Assembly (NCBI GenBank): GCA_964035545.1
Contig: OZ037769.1
Span: 13,794,633-13,858,632, forward strand
Source: Bugula neritina
Taxonomy: Eukaryota; Animalia; Bryozoa
Direction: 5' to 3'
Length of the DNA stretch: 64,000 bases
Under the pieces are notes generated by a model, which saw only the letters and a program-made list of their open reading frames with translations, ran no database searches and was not told the origin of the DNA. Made by a program: the position numbers and the translations under genes. Shown piece by piece: positions 34,823 through 64,000 of this stretch; the stretch's first letter is position 1, and each line of letters opens with the position of its first letter.

Positions 34823-37800
34823 CTAATAGCTTTTGCTCCAGTCAATAACATACTCCAGAGGTTTGTCATGGATATAATTCTGTAGATTCTTAGCTATAAA
34901 CTCCACAGTCTACAACAAAACAGACATGTTACCATCGCTTCATGCATACATATGATATTGAGAAGCAAAACAAATGTGTTAGAGGTATAAAATTATAAAT
35001 TTTCAAGAGAGATAACAATTGTATTGAAACATTATTTTTATATAAAACCACCACTTAAATTTTTAACAATGTGACTAGAAAAGAAAACAAATTTGATCAC
35101 GAATACTTTATTAAAGAATTTACCATGCAGCATTGCATACCAGTATCTAAAACAACAGCCAGTTTATTGAGGGGTGTCTCACAAAAACTACTTATCTCCT
35201 GCTTGTATTTGTCTCAGGTGATGTCAGCAATATTAGATATCAAACATTTCTATTTCAAAACTGTAGCTTGAAAAATGCCATGTTTAAATTAAGGCAAACT
35301 ATAACACAATAGATATTATGTATTTCAACAAAATGCTAAGAAAAACTAAAATTGCAATCAAGTTGCTAACTAACGAATTAAATATCTCGTAATTATATTT
35401 ATACAATAAAAAGCATATAAAGTATAAAATCTAATGCTATTACCAAGATTAGATTTTTAAAGTCAACAATTATTAAAGTAACTGTATGTCTTCTGAAATG
35501 GCTATTTAAATAAATTGCTCACTTTGCATACAGCCATTTTCAACCAAGCAGTCATTTCTAAAATTACCATCTTCAAATAGAAATTTCCGAATGGTGAACA
35601 ATGAAATTTCTCCATACTCCATACAAAAAAATTGTGAAATTACAAAACCGATCAATTGTACAAATGTTTGAGAAGTTGAGATGTTATTTCGATACACCAC
35701 CGAGAAATTAACATTAAATGGGCAATATACATGCGGCATCTACACACTCAATAGTTCAGTTGTTAAATCACACCTTTGGTATTAATGGACCAGCAGCCAC
35801 ATGCGGAGTTATGGTAACCTGGGGGTGTTTCCATAGCAACGAGTCAACAGGAAGTGGTTCTGTGGGTAGCACATCTAAAATGGCCGCCCTTATCCACTTC
35901 TCTCTAAAAATACAAAAATATATTTTAAATTTTACGAGTACAAGCATTAATAAAAATGTAATTTTACAGATAAGCCATTAATAACTCATCAAGTAAAACT
36001 AGACCAAGACACGGGATTACTACAATACTAGAGAGTTGTTGTATCTAGCAACATATCTAGCTCTGATTTCCAAGCAGTAAAGAAACTTTGCAGTCAAAAT
36101 AAAGGACTAAATAAGGCATTTCATCACCATTACAAATCATACTTGTCAGTCCGGCAAAACAATAAACTTTCATAAGATAAATTAATACTACCTGGAATAA
36201 CCACAGAACAACCTCTTGTCTAACTCCGTGCTTGGAGTATAGAGAACAATGTGAGACATAGCCTGAGAGAATGGTGCTTACCTCAGGGCTTGGAGTATAG
36301 AATCCTCTGTACATATGTCACCTCGGCCCACATTGATGAATACAGAACGTTTAGAAGAACAGACCTTCAATCTCTCATTATCCAGTAGACCTCGAGTTAG
36401 CTGTGTACTCGGCAGAATGTTGCAGACGTAATGGCAGTTTGCCAGAAGTTCATCAATTCCCTCAGCTACCCTGTAATATACTGTTAGTTTACTTGTAATA
36501 TATTATCAGTTACTCTGTAATATATTACCAGTCACTGTGTAATATAGTATTAGTTACTGTGTAATATATTATCAGTTACTGTGTAATATGTCACCAGTCA
36601 CTGTGTAATATAGTATTAGTTACTATGTAATATATTATCAGTTACTCTGTAATATATTATCAGTTACTGTGTGATATAGTATTAGTTACTATGCAATACA
36701 TTATCTAAGCTCTGTAACACTGACAGATGATGATAACAGAAGCAAGCGGGCAGACACAACACAACTAACCTGTATTCATCCACATAAGCACATTTATTAT
36801 CATCAGGTGGGAATCGATTAACTAAAGTCCATACTCTCATCCCACAGGCTTTACACATTTCTGCAACTGTAACAAAACCATGCAAATTATAAACAACTTT
36901 AGACCACAACAAAACTTTTCAATTGTGTTGGTTGTCTTTAGAATAGTTTACTTATATTCATGATGTATATCATTCACTACCGCAAAAATCCAAGAAAATG
37001 CAATAAAAAGCATTACATGTTGTAGTGATGAGTTAACCCAGTGGTCCCTGTGGTGTAATGGTTAGCACACTTGTTGCAAGCTAGAGGTCTTGGGTTCAAA
37101 TCCCAGAGGGGGCAATTATTTTACAGATGAATTTATTTATTAACTGATTTACGTGTTCACCTTTTTTTCCTATCTCTCCGAGACCGAGTATGCCGATAGA
37201 AAAGGAGTCCATTGTCCTGCTTTCATTAAATATATGCTCTGCCAGTTCCACGGACCTAAACAAATACATTATATTCTTACAACTTTTAGCAACTCAGAGA
37301 CAGGAGAGTGGAAATAGGTGAGGACAACTCCCTGCAACAGGTGGGAACAACTTCAAGCAACTCAGGCTATGTCAGTAACTCAGGCTATGTGGCCCTGGAG
37401 TCTGTCGTGCATGTACAAGATGGCTACTGCCAATAAAATTCAACACCGGGGAGGAAGATAAAAATAAATTTTACAGGCCACTTTGGATTTTAGTAAGCAA
37501 TTTAGTTTTCATAAAATTCATTCATTAATGTAAAGTGCAAGTGTAGCTACTCAGAGTACAAGAGCTGGATATGATGAACAGACCAGACACTTCAATTTTG
37601 ACTGTTTCATATGCAGGTGTTTTGCTCTGTAAAAGCTGCTGTCAGCATTTTTAAAGAAATGACTAGTTGCTATAGCATGATAGTTAGAAGTTCCTACCAA
37701 TTATTATACAAATATAAAACAATGCTCCATTTGATTATATCGTTTATTTTGTTAACCTGACAATTCAGTACCTGTTCCACACACTATCATAACTCTTACA

Positions 37801-45169: not shown

Positions 45170-45468
45170 TGTAGTGGAGCACGCGGTATGTGCCTCCACG
45201 TGCTCCCTAGCCAATCAATTATGTATCAGGTGATACCTCCAGAGATGCGTGTACAGAGGGAATTGCATTACTAGTCAATAGAGTAGATAGCGTGCTAACG
45301 TATAGACGAGATGTAATTTTATAATAACGATACTGGATGTACCTCTTTTCTTGCTATATAGTAGTAAATAAAGACATTCTAACTTTTAACAAACCCCCCA
45401 TTACTTCGGATAATTGGAACCATAATAACAGACTAGAAAACCCACGCATAGTAATTGTGCAAATTACA
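45170..45468 (+). repeat. 5' LTR of element 1
   Basis: TGTAGT...ATTACA with AATAAA at ~45368. About 95% identical by eye to 52406-52425 plus 52911-53103. Confidence 0.9.
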
Positions 45469-45472
45469 ACAG

Positions 45473-45490
45473 TGGTGGCAGCGGTGGGAT
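45473..45490 (+). promoter_or_regulatory. Primer-binding site complementary to the tRNA-Leu 3' end
   Basis: TGGTGGCAGCGGTGGGAT directly after the LTR. Confidence 0.85.
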
Positions 45491-45510
45491 ACTAGTTACT
45501 GTTAGAGACA

Positions 45511-48500
45511 ATGAAAGGACATTACGATATCATGGCAGAAAGTACAGCTTTGAGTGAGGAAGGTGAGCGAGATACTATCATAACCCCTTTCCAGGCTGGA
45601 GAGGAGGCGTATAAGTATAGATTAAAAGCTCCCGTCTTCACGGGCCTAGAAGATGTTGAACAATTTATTCAAGAATTCAACGAAGTTACAGCCATTACTG
45701 AATGGCCGCCAAGAATAGCTTTGATATAACTACGGATGGTGCTGACGGAGAGAGCCAAGCCGTACGGACTGAGATCCAGTGTAAACGGGATCTTTGCTGC
45801 GCTGCGGGCCTGTTTTGGCATATCTGTCATAGACGCCAGGGTCCGTTTACAAAGGCTGCTCCGTAGAACACACACACCACTCAAGGACCACGCTACACTA
45901 GTGAAGAGACTGGCACGGATCGCGTACAGCGACTTGCCAGAAACACATCGACAACACTATACCTTCGAGGCCTTTGTACAGTCCCTCAATAATCTGGGCC
46001 TCCATCATCAGCTTCAAGTAAGAGGAGTGACCACGATAGAGGCTGCGCTACAAAAAGGTGAAGCCTATTTATTGGCCGAACAACTCCATCGGGCAACGGA
46101 GAACTCCCCGCGTCCCCACCCAGTCCGGGTAGCTGTCGCTACTACCAACCCCTCCCTGGGAACGGAGGTAGACCGCTTCATGACCATGCTAGAACAGTTG
46201 GTGGCAATCATAACGCGTGTCAACCCCACAGGATCCAGGACACTGAAGATAGAGGTCCCAAGACCAGCTGCCTTATGTTAGAGATGCGGCACCAGGGGAC
46301 ATCTCCGCTCGAGTTGTCCAAAACCTAAGAAGCAGTTAAACCCTCACGGCCCGCGGATGCCTCCAAAACCCCGCGGCCCAAGAAAGAAGGAGCCACGGGG
46401 TGGATACCACCAGGCGTTTGTACGGACCCCGCAGTATGCCCCCCACCAGTGGCAGACACCCTGTCGGACCAGTCAACCTGACCGGCGGCGGGAACCTTTC
46501 TCACTGCCTCTCACTAACCGCTTCAGCCAGCTACCAGAAACGGAGCTGGCTGGCGAGGTTCCTTCGGACAGCGGAGGGGAACAGCTCACCCCTCCGCAAG
46601 GAAACTCTCACCTCCACCGGCCCCGCAAACCGCGGAACAAACGGGCACCACCCCGTTCGGCCGAGACCGAACACGCTGGGGGAGTACGGGTACAACCTCA
46701 TGGAGATAGCTACTTCTTGCCAGGGAAGGTGGCCGGCAAAGCTGTCACATTCCTGCTAGACTCCGGGTGTACTACTAATCTCTTCAGCCGTCGGGTCTCC
46801 GATACCCTCCCCTCCAGGGAGAGGGGAGCCTTAGCTTCCTATACCGGGGAACCTGGCACCCTTGCAGACGGGTCGCGTATCCCATTCTACGGTATTATAG
46901 AGCTGACTGGACGCATCCGCGACCAGGCTAGAGGAGGATGCCATACTAGGGATGCCGTTCTTGAAGCGACATGGTTACCGCATTGACTTTAGCAAGTCAG
47001 CCATGCTAATGGCCGGCAAGGAGCTCACCTGTGTCGACAAGTTCGGCCATCTCCTAGTGGGAGGCGTGCAGGTAGTACCGAGCTGTACAATACAAGGCCG
47101 CTCCCGGGCTACCATTCACTGTAGGGTGAACAATAGCCAAATCTCGGGATTGGGGGTTGTCGAAGGCGCGCGCACAAGAATACAGCTCGCTAGCAGTCTT
47201 AACCGGCTGACTGATCGAGGAGAGATCTTGGTGCAGTGTGTCAACCCCTTTTCCGAGGCGGTGAAACTACTGTCAGCGTCCATGCTGGGCCGGTTCCATT
47301 CTGTTCAGGAAGAAGATATAGGGCCGTCGCTAGGAGATGCGGCGGAAGGTCCCCGACAGAGCCCGTAATTGAGGCGGGGGACCGTCCCACAGCACGTCCG
47401 GGAGCTGTACCAGGCAGCATGTGACGGCTGCGCGAGCAACGGAGAGCGCCAGGCTATGGCCCGGTTGCTACGCGAGTACAGCGACGTGTTCAGCAGTGGA
47501 GACCATGACGTAGGCCTGACAACGGCCGTCCGTCATGAGATACCGCTAGCTGCAGAGACTGCCCCTATCCGACAACCCACTAGGAGGTTGGGACCAGAAA
47601 AGGAGAAGGAGGTCAGCCAACAAGTCCGGGATCTTTTGGACCGCGGCCTCATAGAGCCAGCACATAGTGCGTGGAGCTCGCCGGTCGTCTTAGTCCCAAA
47701 GAAAGACAGCAGTTGGCGGTTCTGTGTGGATTATCACAAGCTGAATAGCTTACCCCTTACCCCGGATCGACGAATCTCTGGACGCCCTAGCCGGCAGAAA
47801 GTACTTTAGTACACTAGACTTGCTGAGTGGCTATTGGCAGGTCTCCCTCAGTCTCGACGCCCAAGAGAAGGCGGCATTTATCACAAGGGACGGCCTATGG
47901 AAGTGGAAAGTCCCACCCTTTGGGCTGACTTCCGCCCTCGCCACCTTCCAGAGGCTCATGGAACAGGTCCTCAGTGGACTCCACTGGAAGACACTGCTGG
48001 TTTACCTTGATGACGTCAACGTGATCTCCCCAGACTTCCAGACACATATCAGTCGTTTGCGGAAGGTGTTCGAACGACTCAGAGGTGCCGGTCTAAAGCT
48101 CAAACCCTCTATGTGCGCTCTCTTGCAGCCAGAGGTGAAATACCTGGGGCACATCGTCGGCCGTCACGGCGTGGCGACGGATCCCAAAAAGGTATGAGCT
48201 ATAGAAGACTGGGTCACCCCCCAGGATTTGACCAGACTTCGGGCATTCCTCGGGCTGGTGGGGTATTACCGACAATACATACCAGACTTTGCGGGGGTGG
48301 CTCAGCCGTTAAATCGGCTCACCGCAAAGGGGGTGACCTGGCAGTGGACTTCTGTCGAACAGAGGGCGTTCAACTGCTTCAAGGGCCGCCTGCTAGAGGC
48401 TCCCATCTTGGCCTACCCAGACCCCGCTCTGGAGTACATCCTAGACACAGACGCCAGTGACCAGAACGTTGGCGCTGTGCTGTCACAGGTGCAGGAGGGC

Positions 48501-50929
48501 CGAGAAGTAGTAGTAGCCTACTACAGCAAATCTCTCTCACCCACCGAAATAAATTACTGCACTACCCGCAAGGAACTGCTGGCAGTAATCAAGTCGGTGA
48601 AGCACTTCAGACCCTATCTATACGGCAGGAAGTTCCGGCTGCGTACGGACCACGCCTCCTTGATTTGGTTGTGCAAGAGAGCAGAACCGTCTAGCCAGGT
48701 CGCCAGACGGCTCAAGGTCCTGGCTGAGTTCTCTTACCCGATCGAACATCGACCCAGTAAGAAACACGGCAATGCAGATGGACTGAGCCGGCGACCGGAC
48801 GAGGGGTGTAAACAATGCCTCAACATCGAGAGGAGAGACGGAGGTCCCCCACAATCCGAGTTGAGAGCACTGGATCACCCTGGGGTAGAGTATGACTGGG
48901 ACCAGGGTCAACTCCAACAGAAGGCTGATACGCCTCTGGAGGCAATACAGAACCTCCGCGCCAACCCTGCCTTGGCTGATAATGCCAGAGAGCTGCAAAA
49001 ACTCCAGGAGGATCTTCCGGGAGTAGTAGCCAACGTGTACCGGGCCAAGAAGGAGGGGCGACGACCCAGGAAAGAACAACTGCGGCAGGGATGCGCCGAG
49101 TTACGGCTGTACTGCCAACGTTGGGACTCCCCGCGGATCGGGCCAGATAGTCTGCTGACCATGACAGTGGCCGCAAACAACAGACACCCCAAGAGAAAGC
49201 GGGTAGTCTGCCCAGCTACCATCTGCCGAGAGTTAGTATGGGACACCCACAAACAGGCTCACGCAGGGGTCCAAAGGGTGCTCACAAAATTACAGCTCCG
49301 GTGGTATTGGCCCAACATGGAGCGTGACGTACGACTCAGAGTAAAACAGTGTGAAATCTGCCAGGCCAGCAAGCATGGCCATCTCCCTGGTAAAGCGGGA
49401 CGGCATAGGCTATATGCTGGGAGGTTATGGCAAGTGGTAGCTGTTGACCTGGTCGGACCCATGCCCCTAAACCCCAGAGGAAACAGCTATGTCTTAGTAT
49501 TAACCGACCACTTTACCAGGTGGGCCGACGCTCTGGCTATTCCGGATGCGTCTGCCCCAACGGTGGCCAGGGTGCTAGACCAAAATGTATTCTGCTACTT
49601 TGGATTACCCGAGCAGATACATTCAGACCAGGAAGCTCAATTTCACTCTCAACTTTTGAGCGACCTCTGCCGCCTCTGGGGAGTAAACTAAAGCAGGACC
49701 ACTCCTTACCACCCTCAAGGTAACGGAGTGGTAGAACGCAACAACCGATAGTTGGGCGATGCAATCCGCAGTCTTCTCCTCGGCCGAGGTCAGGAGAAAT
49801 GGGATATGGTGTTACCGCAAATCATGCGGGCCTACCGCAATACACCACGCACCAGTACGGGCGAGACCCCTAACCTCCTGATGTTTGGTCGGGAGACGCG
49901 AGTGCCCGATCACCTCACCTACCACATTCCTGAACAGGACTATCCCATCCATGAGTATGCCAGTGAATTGGTAGAGAAAATGAAGGTCGCACACGAAATA
50001 CTGCGAAAAAAGCAGTGACAGGTGTGACAAGAAGACTCAGGAACCACCCCTTTACCAAGCTGGGGACTGGGTGTGGATGGTCAACTACCGTAGGCGTTGA
50101 GGGCAGGCGGCTAAACTCCAGCCTAAGTTTGTGGGACCCTAGGTAGTAGTTGAGGCGATGCCCAATCATATGTACAAGTTGGAGCGCTCAAGCCAGATAT
50201 CTATCCAGAATGAGGCTCGCTTGAAACCGTATTGGGCTAGCCCAGGGGCAGCAGGAGAAGCCCCCCCATTGTTGGAGCCCAGGAGGCAAACAGCAACGTG
50301 CGGGCGGCGACGGCATGGACCAAAATACGAAGTCGTGTGCCGCGGGCGGAAAACTTGGTAAGGCAGGAAAGGCCACTTCCATCAACAGAAGTGCGCCCAC
50401 CGCCCCCAACGCCAAGCCTACCGCCAACACTTCCGGAACCAGACGCGGATCCGGAAGTGCAAACCCCCCCCCCGTGGGAGGGGCTCCATCCGGAGATGAT
50501 GAAGAAGAAGGAAATACGACCATCAACGACGGGCCGGAGACACCACTAGTGGAACCTAATAGTCCACCAGTGAGTACACCGCCCCGACCAGCAACCATAC
50601 CATCTTCCCCAGCTAGTATGCCACCTCCCCTGGAACGGGAACAACGTACTAGACAACCCCCAGCATACTTAAAAGACTTCGTATGTGACCGCGTTACAAA
50701 CGGCAATTATGAAAGTCCAGCTGGGTGCCGTACGGAGAGGCTGGCAGCGAAACGTGGGAGTTGTGAACACCACGGAAATACTAACTTTTGCAAGGGCGGA
50801 GTAGTGGGCAAAATTACTACACCCGGGGCAAACAGTTCCGGCTTTGCGCAAGAAACACGCGGTCCGGTCTTTTCCTACGCTGACATCGCCAAGGGCAGAC
50901 GTATTAAATCCACTAACATCCAAGCTTGA
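45511..50929 (+). pseudogene. gag-pol of element 1 (multiple stops and frameshifts)
   Basis: Fragments 45511-46986 (gag, CCHC C*RCGTRGHLRSSC, PR in the same frame), 47369-48197 (RT), 48228-49691 (RT/RH/IN) and 49752-50929 (IN C-terminus with Pro-rich tail). Confidence 0.92.
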
Positions 50930-50938
50930 ACGCTGAGT

Positions 50939-52089
50939 ATGATTTCAAATACCAGGTTCCATGGTAAGCTTGCCTAGACCTAGTATTCCTATCTATGGAA
51001 ACGGGTCTAACATTAGCTAATTCTGATTTAATCGCTCTGATTGAATCACAATTACTGGGGACTGAGTTACACGTGAAAGACGACGAGGACATAACAATGG
51101 CCGACAATCTACTAGATCTGGAGCTTGACACTATGTCCCTCAGTCAGTCTACGCGCCACGACACAGTCCTTCGAGTGCCGTATAAAAATATGCATGACTC
51201 TCAGACTATTAACAGTCGGTTGTCATCAGAATTATGCTGTAAAGATCACACTCGATCTAACAATAGTTCTGCTCTTTCAGATACCACTCGCTCTTCTAAC
51301 CCTAATGATAGGCCGCCATTGGAGATGGCCTGGAACAAAGAGCCTATCCCCGCCACGCTTCCGGAAATACTCCTAACCCAATCCTGCTGGATCACGAAGG
51401 ACACCGAGACACTCATCCAACAAAACAGAGGCGGCGATCAGTGCACCACCTGCCGTCTGTGTCAGTTACATTTTACCACCCCCCGCAGACTCAGAGTCCA
51501 CGTCCCCCAACACTATATTACCACCTTCTGTCCCTGTGGTGAATATAGTCACCACAGGGACTACATCCTCCGCCACCAACGAACAATGGGGTGCCACGCT
51601 GGACATCTTTATGAAGTGGACAAACCCTCTTTTTCTCATTTCCTCGACCTCATCAGGCCATTTATCTCTGACCCGACCCGTTATGAACGGCTGTGCCAAG
51701 AATTCCCTGCCCCCCGTATCATTACACAAGGACCCTGTCCCAAAACCCCGGGGTTTAAGAAACCCCCGACACCTCGCCAGTCACCCCCCTCCCGCACTGT
51801 ACCCTGTCCCAACTCTATACCCCAAGTCGTCTTACAACGAATAGAAGTACCCCAGAGAGGGCGCCTCTCTCCTCCCGTTTCTCCTCGACCCTCCCGTAAG
51901 CGCCGTTGGCTGTCTTCCTCTCCCAATCGCCACTCTTCTCCTGCTAGGAATTTGAAAGAGACGGAGCAACGAATACATGAGTTAGAGAGAGAAGTTCAAC
52001 GGTTGGCACCTAGAATATCTGCCGCCGCTTCCGAGCTCCGGGCTTTCCGTGACTCCGTGGCCCAATTAAAGAGGAATGCCCAAGACTGA
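50939..52089 (+). CDS. Accessory zinc-finger/coiled-coil ORF of element 1 (predicted micro-exon 50939-50963 plus exon 51281-52089; the unspliced ORF 50995-52089 is also open)
   Basis: CRLC-x12-H-x3-H finger, CPCG-x11-H-x5-CH finger, basic RPSRKRR tract and a heptad C-terminus. Homologous to regions of elements 2 and 3. Confidence 0.75.
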
Positions 52090-52405
52090 GTGTCTACTCC
52101 CTCCCTTCGTCCCATTCCACTATCACTTAACTACGCCGCGAGTGGTGCCTCACTTACCGCCTTCTACATATCACTGCCCGGTGCTATAGTAAGGACTCTC
52201 AATACAGACAATCTTTTAGTTAGTACGCAATTATTTTTTTAGTTTTATATAGGCCTTTGGCATAAAAATACCTTGTGATTCTGTTAACGCTGTCTCGTTG
52301 TTTATTTTTGATTGTGTTTTTTTTATATATATATATGTACGCATTTCTTTTTTTAAAATTTTATTAGTCTTATCAGGAAAGTGGGCTTCCTGCTGGGGGG
52401 GGCGA

Positions 52406-53103
52406 TGTGGTGGGGCACGTGGTATTGTGATAAACTTGTGGGTTGAATGTAACTTAGTGCAGAACAAGAGAGGTTGAGGTAGTAGAGTTCAAAAATGTTT
52501 TATTGTAGCAGAATAACTTCGACTTACCCAGGCGAGCTCCAGTAGTAGACTGAATCTACACTGGAACTCGCCTGCTTTTATACACAGAGAACAATAGAGC
52601 ATGTAGACAAGAGATCTTTTGTGGTCCGAAATTCGGCAGCTCCGAAATTCGGCAGAGCCGAAACTCGGCCCACAAATTTCCAGTATCAGTATTATTGCAA
52701 AACGATAAAATAGCAGCACAAAAGAAAATAACTCCGGAATGCGTATTTCAGCAAAATTACATTATGTTGAAAGCTTTAACAATAATCACAATAATTGGGC
52801 ATTAGCAAGCTAGCTTACTACAATTACAGCATTCAAAACGATACGCAACAGTAATCACAATACACGCAGTTATTTCAGAACTAATAGAGGATGAGAATCC
52901 ATTACAGTACGTGCCTCCACGTGCTCCCTAGCCAATCAATTATGTATCAGGTGATACCCCAGCGATGCGGGTACAGAGGGAATTGCATTACTAGTCAGTA
53001 GAGTAGATAGCGTGCTAACTTATAGACGAGATGTAATTTTATAATAACGATACTGGATGTACCTCTTTTCTTGTTATATAATAGTAAATAAAGACATTCT
53101 AAC
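52406..53103 (+). repeat. 3' LTR of element 1, split by a nested solo LTR and truncated at 53103
   Basis: Starts TGTGGT after the PPT, resumes at 52911, and matches the 5' LTR up to ...GACATTCTAAC. Confidence 0.9.
52426..52906 (-). mobile_element. Nested solo LTR of another family (481 bp)
   Basis: TGTGAT...ATTACA with a 4-bp TSD GTAT/GTAC. The minus strand carries TATAAAAG, an Inr-like TCAGTC and AATAAA. Confidence 0.88.
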
Positions 53104-56100
53104 GCTGGAGGTTCTGTGTGGACTACCGCAGACTCAACAGTGTTACCATCCAGGACGCTTACCCTCTCCCACAAATAGACGAGTCTCTGGATGCCCTCCC
53201 TCGCGGGTAGCAAGTACTTCAGTACTCTGGATCTGCTTAGCGGGTACTGGCAAGTACCCCTCAGTCCTGATGCTCAGGACAAAGCAGCATTCATTACTCC
53301 CGAGGGGCTCTGGAAGTGGAAAGTACTGCCGTTTGGACTACGTCTGCCCCGGCAACTTTCCAAAGACTCATGGAGCAGGTCCTCAGTGGATTACACTGGA
53401 AGACCCTCCTAATCTATCTGGATGACGTCATTGTCATCTCCCCAGACTTTACGACTCATGTCAGTCGTCTGCGGGAGGTCTTTGATCGACTCCGGGCTGC
53501 TGGACTGAAGTTGAAACCCTCCAAGTGTGCACTCCTACAGGAAGAAGTCACGTACCTGGGCCATGTGGTTGGCCGTGACGGGGTCGCTACCGATCCGGAG
53601 AAGGTACAGGCTGTGAAGGAGTGGGCCGTCCCCCGGGACCTCTCTGAATTGCGGGCATTCCTGGGCCTGGTAGGGTACTACAGGCAGTACGTACCCGGGT
53701 TTGCAGGGGTGGCTCAGCCTTTGAATCGGCTAACCGCCAAGGGAGTCCGGTGGCAGTGGACACAGGAGGAGCAGCAGGCATTCGACCACCTCAAATAACG
53801 GCTAACGGAGGCGCCGATTCTGGGGTATCCTGATCCAGCCAAGGAATACATCCTGGACACTGACGCCAGCGACCACAGCGTGGGAGCTGTTCTGTCTCAA
53901 GTCCAGGGTGGAAGTGAGGTAGTCGTGGCTTACTACAGCAAGACTCTCGCGGCCGCCGAGAAGAACTACTGCACCACTAGGAAGGAACTCCTAGCAGTAG
54001 TCAAGGCGGTCAAGCACTTTCGGCCATATCTGTATGGGAGAACGTTCCGGTTGCGAACAGACCATGCATCACTGATATGGCTGTGTAAACGTGCAGAGCC
54101 CTCGAGCCAGATGGCTCGTTGGCTAGAGATTCTTGCTGAGTTCTCCTACCGGATAGAGCACCGTGCCGGCAAGAAGCACGGGAACGCTCATGGCATGAGT
54201 CGCCGACCGGTAGAGAACTGCAAGCAATGCCTACACATCGAGAAACGTGATGGGGGACCTGCTTGCCTTGACGTCGAGGCACAGTTGGGGGACGGCAACG
54301 TCTATCGTTGGGAGCACGGCCATCTTCGGCCTGCAACCCACTCAGACGACGTCCAAGCACTTCGTGCTAACCCCACGCTATACCAGAACGTCAAAGAGCT
54401 GTGTCGACTGCAAGAGACACTCCCTGGATCAGTAGCTGACATCTTCCAGGCCAAGAAAGAAGGCAGACGGCCCTCGGAGGGACAGCAACGGCAAGGGGAC
54501 GCAGAGTTCCAGTTCTTCTGCCGCCGCTGGAATTCTCTCCAGATTTGTTCAGACGGTCTCCTGACAATGACACTCGCAGCAGACAACCGGCAACAGGAGA
54601 AGGACCGCGTCGTGTGCCCGCGCGCTCTCCGTCGAGAAATCATCTGGGATACCCACAGACAGGCTCATGCTGGAGTCAGTCGGGTCATCAGATGCCTGCA
54701 GATGCGTTGGTATTGGCCCGGAATGACCAGGGATGTGCGACTGAGAATTCAGCAATGTAAAGTCTGCCAAGCCAGCAAACACGGGCGCCCCACCGAAACC
54801 ACGGGTCGGCGCCGGCTATACGCCGGCCGGCCCTGGCAGGTCGTAGCCGTGGACCTTGTGGGACCAATGCCCACAACGGAGAGGGGGAATTCCTGGATTT
54901 TGGTCTTAACAGACCATTTTACGAGGTGGGCAGACGCCCTGGCTATCCCCGATGCATCGGCACCCACAGTAGCTCGGGTCCTGGATCAACACGTGTTCTG
55001 CTACTTCGGCCTACCCGAGCAGATCCACACTGACAAGGGCGCCCAATTTCAGTCACAACTGTTGAAGGACCTTTGCCAAGTATGGGGGGTGAATCAGAGC
55101 CGGACCACCCCATATCACCCTCAAGGAAACGGAGTGGTAGAAAAAAATAACCGGATGCTGGGTGATGCCCTCCAGAGTCTTTTGTTGGGGAGGAGCCAAG
55201 AAGAGTGGGACATCATGCTACCACAGATAATGCGAGCATATCGAAGTACCCCTCACTCCAGTACAAAAGAGACACCTAATCTGTTGATGTTGGGCCGTGA
55301 AACTAGGGTGCCGGAACACCTTGCTCACCATATTCTGACCCCCGAATTTCCAGTACACAAGTATGTGGGGAAGTTGGTAGAGACCATGAGAAGAGCCCAT
55401 GACGCCTTGAGAGAGAAACAGTGGACGGTGCGGACAGAAGACTCCGAGGAGCCTCCACTATACCAGGAAGGGGACTGGGTGTGGATGGTCAGTTACCGGA
55501 GGCGGCGCGGACAATCGGCTAAATTACAGCCTAAGTTCGTAGGCCCTTACTGCGTGGTAGAGGTTTTACCCAACCATACATACCGTGTGGAGCGCTCAGG
55601 GCAAATATCTGTCCAAAACGAGCAACAGTTGAAACCCTACTACGAAAGCCCAGAGGCTGCAGGGCAGGCACCACCACTGCTGGAACCGGCATGCCAGCCT
55701 ATTTCCCGTGGAAGGAGGAACCAACCCAGAGACTGGGAAATAATTATTCGCGATCCTGGAGAAGTCCGGGACACCTATGACGCCCCGCCACGAAACCTGC
55801 CACCTACTCTACATATCCCTGATTCACCCACCCGGACCAGCCAACCAGAGGCGCCACCACCACCAACACAGACCTCAGAGAGCCTACCCTTGCCACCAAT
55901 ACCTGTTCCAGAAGACATACCCCCTCCGCCGAACGTCCCAAGTCAACCAAACAGCCCTACCAACCCCACTCTGGGGAGAGGAAAGAGAGACAAGAAACCC
56001 CCGAGTTACTTGGCTGACTATCATGTTGGGTGCCTGACTGAACCCCGCTCCTCGAATCATTCACTCCGACCGAATACGAATTCGGACTGTCATCTCGGGC

Positions 56101-57530
56101 CGGACATAAATACACTAACTATTCAAGAAATTCAAGACCAAAATTCGGGGGTAGCCCGACGTCCGGAGTTGTCTAATTTAACTGACCACTTGACCGGTCA
56201 CGTGACCGGCGATCCCACGAGTTTTAAAATTGAAATTCAAAACTCGGCCATTTTCACTTCAACTCTAGACGAAGAAGCACGCTCTCTCGAACTAAAATCA
56301 GAAAACTTAGCAGATATGGAGCCTATTACGACTGAACAAGCTCAAGTCACTACACGATCAGGTATTTCTAGCATACTAAAACCTCCTTTCATGGAGTACA
56401 GTAGCTCGTTCGATTCATTTTCACCCGACCATCAGTGGGAAAATGAGTTGTTCTTTGACAACAAAGGTCAGGGCGATTCAGAAGAGTCCCCAGTCAATGA
56501 CTACCTGCTAGACCAGGAGATTGGACGGGTGTCTCTTCGGCTATCACCTGACCTACCCATTTGTCAGAGAGTACCTTTCAAGGAGATGCCGAATTTCGGC
56601 AATTATAAGGCCAGGTCACCAAAGCCTCTACTTTCTATTGCAGAAGCCATCGAATGTGAGGAGGTCGGGGCGAGTCATACCGACTCCCCGGCCACAGTGA
56701 CTCCTGACCCGGCTACTACCAACCCACCAGAGGCCCCGATGCCGGAGCCCGCACCCACCACCCAGCCAGAGGCAAGTACCTCCCCTCCGGTCGACGGTTC
56801 CCCGTCCGGTGAGGGTTCTCAGATGAAAGATGAGCCCATGTACCAACAGCTGGCTCTTCCCCAGATCTTGACGGAGCGACCCCACTGGACCACGGAGGAG
56901 ACCCGTGCCAAAATAGAACGGGACTGTGGAGAGGCCGGCAACCGCAAGTGTCGCCAATGTAGTAGGAAGTTAACTACTACCAGGCGACTGCGGGTGCATG
57001 TGCCACAACACTACGCCAATGTTTTCTGCCTGTGTGGCGAATTCTCTTTTCAGAGAGATTACGTGCTGAGACACCAGCGCATAGCCCGCTGCCACACGGG
57101 TCAGATATTTGTGGTTGACGAGGCAACATTCCCCGAGTTCCGGGATTTGATCCTCCCCCACATCTGTGACCCCCACAAGCGGGCGACACTCGCCCAGGGG
57201 TTTCCGGCATGCCGCCCAACGCAGGAAACCACGGACGAGGAGGCACCACCAACGTCCCGGCCAGCTGTCACCCGACCCCTCCGGGTTGTGTTGGCTCGGG
57301 TCGACGGAAATGGAGAGACGACCCCGCAGATAGCCGGCCACAAAAGGGGGTGGCGCCAGAACTCCAGAGCCCCAGTTTCCACTCCAGCTCCACCAGAGCA
57401 GGCACGATGTCCCCATGAGGCTGAAGTTCTCCGGCTCCGACGCCAGGTGCGCCGGCTAGATGACGATCTACACACTGTCCGCCGCCGTCTAGACAAACTG
57501 GAAGACTGCAGAAATAGCCGCCGCAATTGA
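53104..57530 (+). pseudogene. pol (RT-RH-IN) of element 2, read in frame into the accessory ZnF/coiled-coil region (micro-exon 56316-56361, exon 56644-57530)
   Basis: ORF 53880..57530 (1216 aa). Only about 2 frameshifts and 1 stop lie upstream of it. Confidence 0.88.
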
Positions 57531-57705
57531 GGTGTAGCTAACGACAATTACTCAGCTCAAACTATATCCTCTTGTTCCCGGTTGTATATTTTTTTATGAT
57601 CTGTAGCTAGTTTCATCCACCCCAAGATATTGTTTTTTTCTATATCTACATAATAGTTTTTTTTATATATATATCGGAAAGGGGTACTTTTCGATAAGGG
57701 GTGAG

Positions 57706-58121
57706 TGTAATAGATTTGCTCAATTATATTATATTCTTCTCCTGCATTGTGATAACTAGAGTTATGTTCCCTCGCCACTTGTTTTTCTTTTAATAATAAT
57801 TATATGTGAGCCGAAACTCGTGCGAAGTCGGAGGCCGAAGACACGAGGTCGGAGGGGGGCCTGTCCGAGATCGGACAGGATTCCCTCCGATGTCGGTCGG
57901 CGGAACTCCGAGCTTCGTACGAGTTTCGGACCCCCATTAGTGGCGGGAATTCCACCATATATAAGTGCGAGTTTTTCGAATCTAAAGTCAGTACTGCACA
58001 GGAGCTGCCCGATGAAGGAAGCAATAAATACTATTAATTACAGTTTAACAAGACTCTTTATTTCATCATAATAATTGGCATGCAGACTACTTAGTCTCTT
58101 CTCATAACCCGCAAAACTACA
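57706..58121 (+). repeat. 3' LTR of element 2
   Basis: TGTAAT...ACTACA, with TATATAAG at ~57958, TCAGT at ~57988 and AATAAA at 58023. Confidence 0.85.
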
Positions 58122-60051
58122 ACAATATATATTTTGTATGTCAAGTTAAATTTAAAATTAATCATAAAGATAATTATCAAGATGAATTTAAAATTAAATG
58201 ATTGCTGATGATGATGTTATGATGATAATGTCCAGCATGATAAAAGTAAATATTCAATAATCATAATGAGAATGACAATCATGAGCCTAAGAGTAATCAT
58301 AACTATTTTTTTTAATTTTCATTTTGATTTGGTTGTAGTTTGAGTGAGACTAAGAGTAAGAGTAATTATACAACTAAATGGTTTAACTAACAGTTAGTGT
58401 TACACTTACTTGTCACTAAATCAGTTGCTGTAGATCAAGATGAAGATGTAACACCAACGAACACTGACAGTCACTGTGACTGTATCAAGTGAGACTGTTG
58501 GTCTAAACTTAGTCTTGCCTTTTAACTTTTAAGTAATGCAGTATTACTACATTCATTACTATTACTATTAGTATTAGTATTACTTAGAGTTTAATGCTTT
58601 TTATTTAGTTGAGTTCACCAACAGTAATGCTGTCATTATCATTATATTCATATAACTTCTGAAATTGGCAATAAACTTAAATTTTAATCAATGTATTGAC
58701 TTCTCATCGCGACACCCCCTAGTTATTGACCCCGATATTGTGCTTCATGATTTTCATTTTTTAATCTTTACTTAGCAGGTACATGCATTTCAATTAGCTG
58801 AGTTTGTGCAAAATTCAAAGTCTAATTAATGATGATAATTGCAAAATTAGATTTTTTCACATAGCAAAATACAGATCAAAAATTCTTGTAACACCCATTT
58901 TAGTAAAAAGAACACCCCTTGATAACTAAAGTGGAAGGGGTTTGGTCGCGAGGAAACGATTGTTTTATTTGAGGCCTTTAAAATTCTGTTTGGCAGGAAA
59001 GTAGCTTCCAATAATTTTCATACAATTTTTTTTTTAATTCAAATGATTTAAAAATTTCAAATGTAGAAGTATACAATAAAACCTAATTAAATTCGAAACA
59101 AAAACAAGTATTGCAATGCACTGAGAAAGTTGTCTTCTCTATTGCCAGTGAAAAACTGTACTCTAAACTTTTGAAACCAGTAAAATTAACTAGTGATGCA
59201 ACAGTGCATCTGACAAATTTTGCACAGGCTTTAGTATATTTGCTGCACCATGCAGTTTTTGATCTGTAGCTACATGTCTTCAATTACAGATAATAGAGGT
59301 TGTTATATTATTATGTGTCTTTTGTTTATCACTAATTACGGACTAGCGAGATGCTACGTTATAATGTCATGTGCATTTGTTTATTAAAATACATATTGGG
59401 TCAAGGACGAACGAGAGACTACGAGATGAAAGATGTCAGCCTACAGTAGATAAACACGCCGATAGACTTTGTGATAAAATAATTATAAATCAGTACTATA
59501 CTTTTGGTCCTTGTATTTCCCCTGGCCGGCCAGACCCCACTTTAAGTTTATTGTTCTTTCGATACTTCAATGTCATGCCTACATACTTCGAGTAACTCTC
59601 AGGTAATTATATACTCACTATACTTAATGTTTCAGAGGTCAGAGCAGCTGAGCTGTTTCAAAATTTCAATTAGCATAACAATTTAATATGTTTTTGAAAA
59701 AATATATTTAAACTTGTTTATTCTTTATAAGAAACATGAGGCATACATTTCAAATATGTTAAAATTCAATGCAATATATTTTCTATGCAACTTAAACTTG
59801 ATTAGCAAAACACCATTATAAAATAGAACACAGGCTGATTTTGTCTGGTGCATATAAATTCAGAAGCGTGTGTGCTCTATATATATTATAATGTGCATGT
59901 GTATTGTTGAATTCTCTACAAATAAAATTCAATAATTAGTACACTTTAAACCAAACATTACTCTATAGATCCTATTTTGTGTATGCAAGTGTGAGTTGAT
60001 AATAATGGCTTTACATGTATTTAAAATTATGCTACAACTTGGTAATAATTT

Positions 60052-60571
60052 TGTAGTTTTGTGCACTACTAGATGGGGTGTTATTGTGTGCTGGTAATTA
60101 CTGCATATCCACTGGGAGGTTATGTGAAGAACCGAACAAGTTGATCATGGAACGAGAGAACTGTATTGAATTAATTACGCACAATAAAATCAGTATACAA
60201 TAAAAGAGAAAAATATAACAATAGTCAGAGTAATTACATATTATGGTTAACTTAGTAGCTACTAGTGTTATGATTTTCAGAATTAGGGTCGATATGCAAT
60301 CCAGAGAGTCTAATTACTTGCTAGAGAACTTCACCAGGATAAGTCGAGTGAACGAGTATATATTTTAAACACAATAACACATTACAAAAACGATACAAAT
60401 ATATTTAATAATTCACACATCTAGACTATTCAACACTCTAACTTCGACTAACTAACAGCGGGAAAACTTCTACTGCTAATAACTATCAAAGCCGCTAATT
60501 GGCTGTCATTGTTCCGGGTCAATTACGCGACCCTGCGTATCGTGCTGCTGGTAGCTCCACAAGCCACCACA
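60052..60571 (-). repeat. 3' LTR of element 3
   Basis: Minus strand TGTGGT...ACTACA directly after a PPT whose context (GGGCTTTCTGCTGG) matches that of element 1. Confidence 0.8.
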
Positions 60572-60863
60572 CCGCCCCCACCAGCAGAAAGCCCTCTTTC
60601 TGATATAAAAAATATATTTCGTCATTACCCACGTACATCAGTAGACCAAAGAAAAGACATAATACATATAAAGATATACAATAACAGGCAGAGTCATTAT
60701 AACAGCAGGTTACGTACAATTGGCCAGCTATAGAGAAGGAATACCGGCTAGTTGTAGTATTGGACAAGGAATCGAGCTGTTGAGCAGTCAAGCATTTACA
60801 CGATAGTCTTGGGTCTCCCAAGAGGACGAGGCTTGTGGATCATTCCGGGCAACAGAACCAGAG

Positions 60864-61934
60864 TCAGTGTTGGGCACGCCGATGTTTGGCCTGGCATGTA
60901 CGTAACTTCCTTTTAATCCGGCCCACCGAGCCTTTTAGCTGAAAGAGTCCCGTTGTGGTATTAAGCAGATCCGGTGCTAACTAGGTAAACTCAGCTTGCA
61001 GTCGGAGGAGGCGTTCCTCCACTGTGGCCAAGCGAGTAGGGTCTGGGGACGGTGTCCGTCTGCGACGAAGAGGGGGACTTGGAGACCGGGTCCGTCTTTT
61101 CGTCGGGGTAGGGGAGACCTCTCTTTCTTCGGGATAGGAAAACTCTTCGGGGGTGTACACAGTCTGAGGGCGGTCGGATACCAATGGAGATTGTTGCCTG
61201 GCGTAGTCTAGTACGCGCTGGAAACCTGAGGTCAGAACGGCCAACAACATCGCCTTCTTCACTAGAGGTCGTATCAGAGTTAAGAATTCTGGATAGAGTT
61301 TGGCATCCACCACGTAATTTTCTCCGGAAAAACAGCCCGTCGCCCGATGTCTGGTAACGGGGTAGGGTAGACGTCATTATATCCACAGGGGCAGAACGTG
61401 AGCAATAGATGGGCGTTGACATGCAGCTTCAAGGAGCGGTGAGAGGCACACTCCTCGTCACAAATCTGGCACCGCGTCCTTCCTTTGGGTCCCCAGGCTG
61501 TTTCTATCTGTTCCTCTGTTTCCGGCGACACCCACCGCCAACGGCGGCGCAGCGGCTCGAGCCGGTCACCATTGGTATACTCCTCAGGATGCGGAGCGGG
61601 AAGTGCTCTATCCCGTACCCTGGTTGTAACGGGTCGAGTGTAACCTGAAAGAGTTTCAACAGTGTTAGTATAATACACTGCAGTGTTGTCAGCTTTGGAC
61701 AGCCTGGCAACTTCTCGTTCAGTTACCTCGTAGAGATGTATGGTAGTGAATAGTCAGATAGAACACGTATTGCAATGAGATTATACAATCTCTAAGTCAA
61801 CTGAGTTCTTACCACGGTAGTTCACTAGCCTATCTCCAGCTCATTTGACTCAGTGAGTCGGAGCTGAGTGATGCAATCTAGTTTCCATATCAAGATATAG
61901 TTAACTCACCCCACGATCTGTTGTCGTAAGACAT
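60864..61934 (-). pseudogene. Accessory ZnF/coiled-coil gene of element 3 (micro-exon 61934-61910, exon 61644-60864; one frameshift and one stop)
   Basis: CQIC-x12-H-x3-H, FCPCG, YVVDAKLYPEFLTLIRP, KRRTRSPSPPLRRRR, and heptads LATVEERLLRLQAEF. Confidence 0.75.
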
Positions 61935-61958
61935 ACTGAATTTGTGAAATGGTTTGGA

Positions 61959-64000
61959 CTACTGATTAGGAACACGTCTACTCTTGACTGCATCAGCGTA
62001 TGAAAAGATCAAGCAACGTGGTTGGGGTGCGTGAATTAGACTTTGTGCACTCGGCGGATGAATTTTGTTTCTACTTCCGCCGATACAAAAGTTGATATTT
62101 CCGTGGTGTTGACAACTCCCACATTTGCTCGATACTTTTCCCGTACGGTTTTCCCCTAGACTTTCATACGCGCCGCTTTTAATGCAGTCACATACGAAGT
62201 CCTTCAAATATGCGGGGGTTGCCTCGTACGTTGTCCCCGCTCCAGGGGAGGTGACGCACTCGTCGGTGTAATAGTAGGGGCCTCTGGTGGCGTCTCTACT
62301 TCACCGTTAGTGGTCACTTCTTCTTGTTCTCCGGATGGAGCCCCTCCCTCCGTGGGGGTTTGCACTTCCGGAACCGGCTCGGTTTCTGGAAGTGGTGGAA
62401 TCAGACTTGGCGGTGGCGGACACGCTTCTGTTGGTAAAAGCGGTCGCTCTTCTCTCACCAATTCTTTCTCCCGCGGTATGACCACTTCATATTCAGGTCC
62501 CTGCCGCCGTCGCCCGCGCGTTGTTGTCTGCCTCCTGGGCTCCAACAACGGGGGGGCTTCTCCCACTGCGTCGGGGCTAGCCCAATACGGCTTCAAGCGA
62601 GACTCATTCTGGATAGACACCTGTCCTGAGCGCTCAATCTTGTACGTATGGTTGGCCATAGCCTCGACGACCACGTAGGGTCCCACGAACTTAGGCTGTA
62701 ACTTAGCCGCCTGTCCGCGACGCCTACGGTAATTGACCATCCACACCTTATCTCCCGTTTGGTAGAGGGGTGGTTCCTCGGATTCTTCGTGTCGCACCTT
62801 CCACTGCTGTTCGCGCAGTATATCGTGTGCGGCCTTCATCCGTTCCACTAGTTCACTGGCATACTCGTGAATCGAGTTGTTTAGCTCTGGAACGTGGTGG
62901 TTGAGATGGTCAGGAACCCGGGTCTCTCTCCCGAGCATCAAGAGGTTTGGGGTCTCACCAGTACTGGTGTGTGGGGTGCTACGGTATGCACGCATGACTT
63001 GCGGCAATACCGTATCCCATTCCTCTTGGCTGCGTCCGAGGAGAAGACTCCGGAGCGCATCACCTAGCATTCGGTTGTTGCGCTCCACCATCCCGTTACC
63101 TTGGGGGTGGTAAGGGGTGGTCCTGCTCTGATTCACTCCCCAGAGGCGGCAAAGGTCGCTCATCAGTTGAGACTGGAACTGAGCGCCTTGATCAGAGTGT
63201 ATCTGTTCGGGGAGCCCGAAATAACAGAATACATGTTGGTCTAGCGTCCTGGCCACTGTTGGGGCTGACGCATCTGGGATAGCCAGAGCATCTGCCCACC
63301 TAGTAAAGTGGTCGGTCAGTACTAAGATCCAACTATTGCCTCTGGGGGTCAGGGGCATCGGTCCGACCAGGTCAACAGCTACCACTTGCCACGGCCTGCC
63401 AGCATATAGCCTCCGCCGTCCCGCTTCACCAGGGAGACAGCCATGCTTGCTGGCCTGGCAGATTTTGCACTGCTTTGCTCTGAGCCGGACATCCCGCCCC
63501 ATTTTGGGGCCAATACCACGGGAGTTGCAATTTGGAGATCACTCTCTTGACCCCTGCATGGGCCTGTTTGTGAGTGTCCCAGATTAACTCACGGCGTATG
63601 GCACTGGGGCAGACCACCCTCTTCCTCTCCGGGTGTCTGCCGTTGGCAGCTAGAGAAATGGTCAATAGACCATCCTGCCCGATCCTCAGCGAGTCCCAAC
63701 GCTGGCAGAGTAGCCGGAACTCGGCGCATCCCTGCCGTATGCGTTCCTCGCTGGGTCGTCGCCCGTCCGTTTTGGCCCGATATATGTCTGCCACTACCCC
63801 AGGCAACTCCTCTTGGAGCTTCTTTAGCTCCTGGACATAATCGGCCCGTACAGGATTGGCGCGGAGATTTTGTACAAACTCCGGGGACTCGTCAACTTCC
63901 TGCCTGAGATGACCCTGGTCCCAGTCAAACGGTGCTCCGTGGTGAGCCAATGTCTCCAACTCCCATCGCGGGGGACCTCCGTCCCTCCTCTCGATGTTGA
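61959..64000 (-). pseudogene. Integrase and C-terminal pol tail of element 3
   Basis: HKQAH...CKIC, VAVDLVGP, IHSDQG, GMVER and KFVGPY. Frameshifts occur at ~63500 and ~62205. Confidence 0.92.

Follow-up and report, generated by a model that had tools for sequence, protein, structure and literature searches.

The DNA described here is a 64,000-nucleotide stretch of contig OZ037769.1 from the bryozoan Bugula neritina (the window), which consists of AT-rich, animal-like DNA of approximately 33% GC with three GC-rich elements, E1, E2 and E3, lying from 45.2 kb onward. All three are decayed Ty3/gypsy long terminal repeat (LTR) retrotransposons (Metaviridae): the pol order protease-reverse transcriptase (RT)-RNase H-integrase is present, with Pfam matches to Asp_protease_2 (E 0.0018, below the cut-off), RT_RNaseH, Integrase_H2C2, rve and SH3_Tf2-1, and the RT motif of pol can be read directly from the sequence. 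Each element carries, on the sense strand and 3' of pol, an accessory gene that encodes two zinc sites, a basic patch and a coiled coil, and each of these genes begins with a very short ATG exon followed by a predicted intron (Table 1). We consider it highly probable that this intron is real, and the evidence for it, together with what its retention may add to the accessory protein, is the subject of this analysis.

The coordinates and motifs that an earlier note on this DNA had assigned to the three introns are all present in the sequence, and the junctions lie in phase 1 in every element, each restoring the zinc-finger frame. The reading frames through the intron take a different form in each element. 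In E1, where the pol tail open reading frame (ORF) stops 10 nt 5' of the accessory ATG and a branch-like CTAAC lies at 51257-51261, the length of the intron is 2 mod 3, so that it is open in the frame of exon 2 only; the exon-1 ATG is out of frame and meets a stop after 12 codons, and a long ORF in frame with exon 2 starts at an ATG within the intron, at 50995. The intron of E2 is 0 mod 3 in length and is in frame both with its own ATG and with pol, giving one ORF from 53799 to 57530. In E3, exon 1 begins 25 nt 3' of the end of the pol tail ORF and the intron of the window copy is closed in all three frames; four in-frame stops had been counted there, a number that holds behind an internal ATG, with five present in the full frame of exon 2, and exon 2, described as nearly intact, carries one frameshift and one internal stop. 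In the contigs of run X6, most of the depth differs from the window copy of the E3 intron (61645-61909) by single-base length changes, and the stops of the window copy may therefore not represent the family. The proposal that all three elements share the same intron is backed by sequence for E1 and E2 only, which have LLD and R-x-P-[YF]-K motifs in common, and for E3 by position, phase and acceptor motif; blastn of E1 against E3 finds no similarity within the intron. The earlier note had also described the E1 and E2 introns as open, with shared residues and an internal ME start; the first two parts hold, and the internal methionine is kept in 34 of 34 E1-type rows and in only 3 of 27 E2-type rows, which rules it out as a start common to both types. 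In P0120, an E1-like relative, a peptide resembling exon 1 continues without a frame change into the segment encoded by the intron, the arrangement of the E2 type and a hint that the out-of-frame state of the E1-type intron may be derived.

Candidate sites were scored with approximate splice-site matrices over a local region extending from 300 nt upstream of the ATG to the first CxxC, scoring of the sites having been proposed in the earlier note. The predicted acceptors rank first locally (of 47 AGs in E1, 64 in E2, where the rank is tied, and 51 in E3), and the donors rank first of 35 GTs in E1, fourth of 40 in E2 and first of 50 in E3. Dinucleotide shuffles yielded an ATG-exon-intron-exon structure as good in 0 of 300 trials for E1, 19 of 300 for E2 and 5 of 300 for E3. 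The features of a U2-type intron (GT donor, branch site, polypyrimidine tract and YAG acceptor) are present, except that the E2 donor is weak and its intron has no clear CTAAC. Across the whole of E1 the acceptor ranks first of 531 AGs and the local donor second of 365 GTs, the first being a donor at 45563 that lies 17 codons into gag, in phase 1 to both gag ATGs (45511 and 45532), which makes an env-like splice to the acceptor at 51280 possible.

Because a phase-1 acceptor forces a codon ending in CA or TA and then a codon starting with G, conservation of the sites can be followed in relatives through their protein sequences. All 59 of the rows with residues at this site in a 60-row E1-type alignment comply (leucine in 30, serine in 15, valine in 13 and isoleucine in 1, followed by aspartate in 56 and otherwise by alanine, glutamate or glycine), a result tied with one other of 123 adjacent pairs. 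The E2-type alignment of 38 rows comprises 30 of the 32 search matches, P0074, P0115 and six further proteins, with P0068 and P0148, which start behind the site, and P0235 left out; among the 35 rows that reach the acceptor, 32 comply through 14 different residue pairs (A, V, S, L, T or P, then E, G, D or A), placing this position first of 131. At the E2-type donor, in a region with a mean identity to E2 of just 27%, glycine occupies the site in 21 of 24 rows, is preceded by S, P, T or A in 21 of 24 and is followed by a residue with an A-first codon in 23 of 24, against backgrounds of 0.32-0.35. At the nucleotide level, donor position -2 is A and acceptor position -3 is C or T in nearly all E1-type depth in the contigs of four runs, the donors of the other E1-type copies among the rows listed read AG|GT and their acceptors CAG or TAG, and none of the variant rows listed (40 of 116) touches the GT, the AG or the branch motif of the E1-type intron. 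The sites, whose conservation across copies the earlier note had proposed to check, are conserved beyond coding need, at the residue level for most rows and among rows related by descent. Furthermore, there is no methionine between acceptor and zinc finger in E3, P0070, P0071 or P0202, and an upstream exon is therefore needed in the E3 type. A fourth subfamily (P0236-P0244) includes two members, P0236 and P0241, that begin ...ILYSIA|G and resemble the E2 acceptor peptide, which suggests that the acceptor may be kept there too.

A candidate copy that lost the intron exists among the relatives. P0235, encoded on a 12,168-bp JGI/IMG contig, aligns to its close relative P0180 with one gap that spans residues 43-135 of P0180 (93 codons) and runs from the donor glycine to the residue before the acceptor glutamate, the flanks being identical at 15 of 25 positions before the gap and at 11 of 15 after it, and its junction residue is that expected from G plus two exon-2 bases. 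Although other large gaps occur, this is the sole one that matches both intron ends among 235 of 247 proteins scanned, and no intron-less E1- or E3-type protein was found among the relatives compared. In its simplest reading, P0235 would be a reinserted copy of spliced RNA that included sequence upstream of the ATG. The apparently intron-exact deletion has a parallel in foamy-virus proviruses, in which a 301-nt delta-tas deletion matches the donor and acceptor of bet (PMC12945018). Taken together, the earlier identification of a spliceosomal intron is supported indirectly, by site scores, residue fingerprints, P0235 and, as discussed below, retained coding motifs, rather than by RNA.

The protein encoded by the accessory gene belongs to a family that, grouped at 50% identity, comprises 168 or more clusters (150 listed), and the relatives found number 67 of E1 type, 4 of E3 type and 24 from E2. 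Behind its core, W...CxxC-x12-H-x3-H-x5-C-x-C-G-x11-H, come a helical region and a basic patch, and the C-terminus forms a helix of coiled-coil-like character. The first zinc site (CxxC-x12-H-x3-H) is nearly invariant, with 12 of 101 members matching zf-C2H2_4 at E≤0.01 and PDB profile matches as well, and the second (C-x-C-x12-H) is atypical for classical C2H2 fingers; zinc cores are just 31-47% identical across lineages. AlphaFold2, given 101 sequences, returns a confident two-zinc fold (core predicted local distance difference test score 94.9, predicted template modelling score 0.86) in which residues 22-78 show a weak structural match to tandem C2H2 pairs that bind DNA, Kaiso among them (best Z 3.6, root mean square deviation 2.8 over 57 residues). 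The product is predicted to be a nucleic-acid-binding zinc-finger/coiled-coil protein. No family or fold matching the whole domain was found: Foldseek against PDB and BFVD gave nothing at E≤0.001, VIA gave nothing at Z≥5, which does not show the fold to be new or different, and an Atlas search returned only unnamed or generic C2H2 clusters. Locus scans of viral, metagenome and prokaryote genome collections found nothing. The accessory protein does not have the marks of a retroviral or errantiviral env (signal peptide, fusion and transmembrane domains of a known env family): Pfam scans of the window and of family members give no match to such a family, and the proteins are polar and carry zinc sites along with basic patches. 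The only named relatives are uncharacterized bryozoan gene models, the same core (W...CxxC...H-x3-H...CxCG...H) being found in XP_067940964.1 and XP_067944745.1 of Watersipora subatra and KAF6037488.1 and KAF6040922.1 of B. neritina. The zinc core is carried by the bryozoan gene models P0082/P0218, P0189, P0219 and P0248, twice in one of them, and either capture from a host or domestication by a host may account for them; the models may be host genes, domesticated copies or elements. In two distant members, P0186 and P0210, the N-terminus resembles an integrase tail and reads through in the frame of the zinc core, which indicates that the link between the accessory domain and the 3' ends of pol is probably old.

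The LLD and R-x-P-[YF]-K-x-M motifs encoded by the intron persist from E1 to E2 even though 11 of 14 identical degenerate codons differ silently, a level similar to the 37 of 54 of the zinc core and the 114 of 176 of pol, and this maintenance of residues despite silent change suggests long-lasting selection on the protein. Over the first 51-55 residues of the intron-coded segment, the median net charge is -11.5 in the E1 type (36 rows) and -11 in the E2 type (26 rows), and 22-24% of them are F, W, Y or L. Such an acidic composition rich in F, W, Y and L is typical of acidic activation domains, and the segment is accordingly a predicted acidic activation segment. Of the spliced and intron-retained isoforms suggested by the earlier note, a coding retained form is indirectly supported for the E1 and E2 types on sequence grounds, the E3 intron being closed in the window copy. 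The acidic segment was absent from that note, as were the in-frame link of E2 to pol, the gag donor of E1 and the strong predicted folding of the E1 and E2 introns.

From these findings we propose a model, to which we assign a probability of roughly 60% as a whole, in which the phase-1 intron is very likely spliced by the host and mostly kept in the genomic RNA, and in two lineages the retained intron likely adds an acidic segment. The earlier note had argued that genomic RNA must escape splicing, as in complex retroviruses; since the intron persists in nearly all relatives it probably does escape for the most part, though not without exception, as P0235 appears to have lost it exactly. The accessory mRNA would be transcribed from a promoter inside the pol tail, splicing from the gag donor being an additional route, and would yield two proteins, a long form that includes the acidic segment and a short form that lacks it, the zinc fingers, basic patch and coiled coil being present in both. 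The long form would start at the exon-1 ATG in the E2 type and at the MET ATG that follows a 12-codon upstream ORF in the E1 type, and the E3 type would make the spliced form only, to the extent that the window copy represents its family. The long form may activate transcription of the element, and the short form, still able to dimerize, may dampen or redirect it, in the manner of Tas and Bet. Two features in the pol tails are candidates for a promoter or cis element: a block conserved at the DNA level, 140-190 nt before the E1 ATG, in which E1 and E3 differ silently in 1 of 13 cases against 36 of 104 in the integrase (a comparison chosen after the fact), and an E-box-like palindrome upstream of the E2 ATG, at the position of which P0078, P0187, P0199, P0226 and P0230 have the peptide GHV, SHV or EHV.

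Several observations weigh against this model. The activator and repressor roles are drawn solely from composition. Among the variant rows listed for the E1 subfamily (40 of 116), 11 intron changes are silent and 18 replace a residue, close to the 36% that neutral transitions would give, and so the high conservation of the E1 segment (75%, compared with 71% for the zinc core and 48% for the linker) may be at the RNA level. The fingerprint rows are related and their counts are not independent, and the open introns of homologs are partly a selection effect because databases hold called ORFs. The E2 donor is weak, as noted above, and is outscored by another donor at 56467. Against P0229, its best overall match and one with a more diverged N-terminus, the aligner placed the P0235 gap at 30-100, off the sites, and the case of P0235 is a single sequence known from protein only. 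P0144, of E3 type, has methionines near and within exon 2. Finally, of the contig joints shown (15 of 370 on 45390-64000 in runs X1, X2, X3 and X6, and 2 on 50890-51345 in runs X1, X3, X5 and X6), none falls at an intron site; the junctions 50963^51281, 56361^56644 and 61910^61644 that the earlier note had proposed to look for are missing from this set, which says nothing either way as the contigs are DNA-like, come from runs not on record as RNA, also cover intergenic repeats and have no bearing on expression.

The strongest rival accepts the intron and assigns the protein a different role, that of an export factor like Rev or CERV whose short form binds a folded intron element and licenses export of the intron-containing genomic RNA. 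The predicted folding of the E1 and E2 introns is far better than that of shuffles (z -4.07 and -4.54) and ranks first and fifth of 48 tiles; only 8 of 32 listed variants break a pair in the intron fold where 12.0 are expected (97 of 2000 placements are as low), with one change from a U-A to a C-G pair at 51021/51051, and CERV of the element Cer1 provides a precedent with a cysteine loop (PMC10309623). However, the E3 intron folds in an ordinary way (z -1.58), tiles in pol reach similar values (z about -6, 15 shuffles each, at 62210-62500 on the minus strand, 53168-53458 and 49525-49815), the pair-breaking result falls to 234 of 2000 if the compensated change is counted as broken, and the protein fold resembles, albeit weakly, DNA-binding finger pairs. 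Nor are base pairing and the conservation of residues significantly correlated (rho 0.12, p 0.25; rho -0.16, p 0.13), and the folding of the intron RNA is therefore only a lead. We regard the export role as unlikely, though better placed than the remaining rivals. It is improbable that the acceptor is fed mainly by the gag donor to give an env-like subgenomic mRNA with the local micro-exon as a minor contributor: this route draws on the best donor of E1, with its phase match to both gag ATGs, and on the env of the idefix subclade, which is spliced from within gag (PMC12992720), but the local donor is conserved as a fingerprint, P0235 joins local exon 1 and its upstream flank to exon 2, and a phase match arises by chance 1 time in 3; as a secondary route it can coexist with the proposed model. 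Equally improbable is the absence of splicing, with a single unspliced ORF (or a Pol-fused domain in the E2 type) as the product. The motifs would then follow from coding or from RNA structure, and P0235 would have lost its segment by chance or through an assembly error. In favor of this reading, most homologs are open through the intron, the integrase tail shares its frame with the accessory gene in E2, P0226 and P0230, and further large in-frame deletions exist among relatives. It leaves unexplained, however, why residues of different chemistry at a single column all have codons that begin with G, why exon 2 of the E3 type has no start, what the shuffles showed and how a deletion came to match both predicted ends.

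The proposed model resembles regulatory logic known from other retroelements. Foamy virus makes Tas and Bet from one pre-mRNA under an internal promoter, with a 301-bp intron removed from the Tas ORF such that the retained form encodes Tas and the spliced form Bet (PMC13220597). The accessory unit described here likewise lies at the 3' end and has a roughly 300-nt intron inside its coding ORF, though its hosts are Ty3/gypsy elements without env. In foamy virus the splice moves Bet into another ORF, whereas here both forms would share the C-terminal zinc-finger/coiled-coil part and differ in their N-terminal segment. Homology to Tas or Bet, as in a spumaretrovirus, finds no support: the element is Ty3/gypsy, and Pfam, PDB and BFVD searches and structural superposition give no sequence or fold match to either protein. 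CERV of Cer1, a Gypsy/Ty3 element of C. elegans, is also a non-env accessory protein; spliced RNA serves as its template and its loop is rich in cysteine and zinc-like, and the genomic RNA of Cer1 keeps usable splice sites as would that of the present elements; CERV differs in having G and M domains, and the sections of PMC10309623 consulted describe neither a C2H2-like pair nor a coding retained intron. The env and ORF3 genes of errantiviruses and bdelloid LTR elements are also sense ORFs between pol and the 3' LTR with spliced messages, some from a gag donor (PMC12992720, PMC5408684), but the accessory ORF here has its own ATG exon and an internal intron and matches no env or enzyme family. 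Antisense additional ORFs, such as those of maize Grande, rice RIRE2, Retand and Botrytis Boty, provide an extra and supposedly regulatory gene in the same place (PMC7264820), although these are plant or fungal and encode different proteins, and an antisense intron is never spliced from genomic RNA while the sense intron here is exposed to splicing. Spliced accessory ORFs of gypsy elements are therefore already known (env, rotifer ORF3s, CERV and antisense ORFs). Nevertheless, the literature covered gave no description of this accessory family or of a sense, coding, retained intron in a gypsy accessory gene, with supplements, Repbase reports and most subscription papers, which may hold one, outside its scope; keyword look-ups found no match in PMC8556966 and no occurrence of 'Zinc' in the rotifer paper PMC5408684 or the metazoan env survey PMC13524379.

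Unless its splicing is kept in check, an intron on the sense strand of a retroelement ought to disappear once the RNA is reverse transcribed, and its persistence across lineages points to regulated retention, which in a simple LTR retrotransposon would represent a logic otherwise known from complex retroviruses and Cer1. The elements offer a compact case of this: there are three junctions and two predicted forms, one relative is a candidate for a copy without the intron, and the zinc-finger family, itself undescribed, has annotated bryozoan relatives. It is possible, though we put this forward tentatively and would not bet on it as a whole, that a large invertebrate Ty3/gypsy lineage evolved an autoregulatory switch like that of Tas and Bet independently of retroviruses, in which one intron would serve as splice unit, activation-segment code and folded RNA control element for an undescribed double zinc-finger/coiled-coil protein shared with bryozoan genes, with sister lineages displaying its stages (in frame with pol; upstream ORF and internal start; non-coding intron) and spliced genomes being reinserted.

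Table 1. Positions of the accessory genes and of the other features of the three retrotransposons in the window.
Feature	Position	Strand	Basis or remark
E1 accessory exon 1, 8 codons + G, 25 nt	50939..50963	+	
E1 intron, phase-1 GT-AG, 317 nt, GTAAGC...CTAAC...CTCTTTCAG	50964..51280	+	
E1 accessory exon 2, open: linker, two zinc sites, helical tail, basic patch, coiled coil	51281..52089	+	
E2 accessory exon 1, 15 codons + G, 46 nt	56316..56361	+	
E2 intron, phase-1 GT-AG, 282 nt, GTATTT...CTTTCTATTGCAG; open, in frame	56362..56643	+	
E2 accessory exon 2, open	56644..57530	+	
E3 accessory exon 1, 8 codons + G, 25 nt	61934-61910	-	
E3 intron, phase-1 GT-AG, 265 nt, GTGAGT...TACTAAC...CTCTTTCAG	61909-61645	-	
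E3 accessory exon 2; no ATG before zinc sites; one frameshift, one internal stop	60864..61644	-	
E1 gag start and best-scoring donor AAG|GTGAGC (G at 45563)	45511..45568	+	
DNA-level conserved block, candidate cis element or internal promoter	50750..50800	+	86% to E3 62076-62126
Palindrome CCGGTCACGTGACCGG, E-box-like, candidate promoter element	56194..56209	+	117 nt before E2 ATG
E1 5' LTR (TG...CA)	45170..45471	+	sequence
E1 primer-binding site TGGTGGCAGCGGTGGGAT	45473..45490	+	sequence
E1 gag-pol, decayed: zinc knuckle, protease, RT, RNase H, integrase, tail ORF	45511..50929	+	Pfam, sequence
E1 3' LTR with TG...CA insert inside, cut off at 53103	52406..53103	+	
E2 pol, starting inside RT without 5' part; tail in frame into accessory ATG	53104..56315	+	
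E3 pol: integrase and tail, running off the window	61959..64000	-	

Of the three elements E1 is nearly complete, albeit decayed, with TG...CA LTRs that are 96% identical (45186-45383 versus 52907-53103), a primer-binding site that we take to be of the tRNA-Leu type and a polypurine tract; E2 and E3 are incomplete within the window. The 3' LTR of E1 holds a 481-bp TG...CA insert at 52426-52906, flanked by GTAT/GTAC, that resembles an inverted solo LTR from a different family, with a poly(A)-signal-like motif on the minus strand. At 53103/53104 the cut 3' LTR of E1 abuts the middle of the E2 RT; as other copies carry RT sequence upstream of 53104, the join is private to this locus and reflects either a rearrangement or an assembly join. 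An imperfect inverted repeat of approximately 120 nt lies 3' of the E2 accessory gene at 57811-57929, and Rfam gives one match, at chance level, on an inverted repeat. The AT-rich host DNA contains dispersed short repeats and minisatellite arrays with units of 15-27 nt (11748-12836, 16582-16762, 19587-19964, 23892-25231 and 36256-36727).

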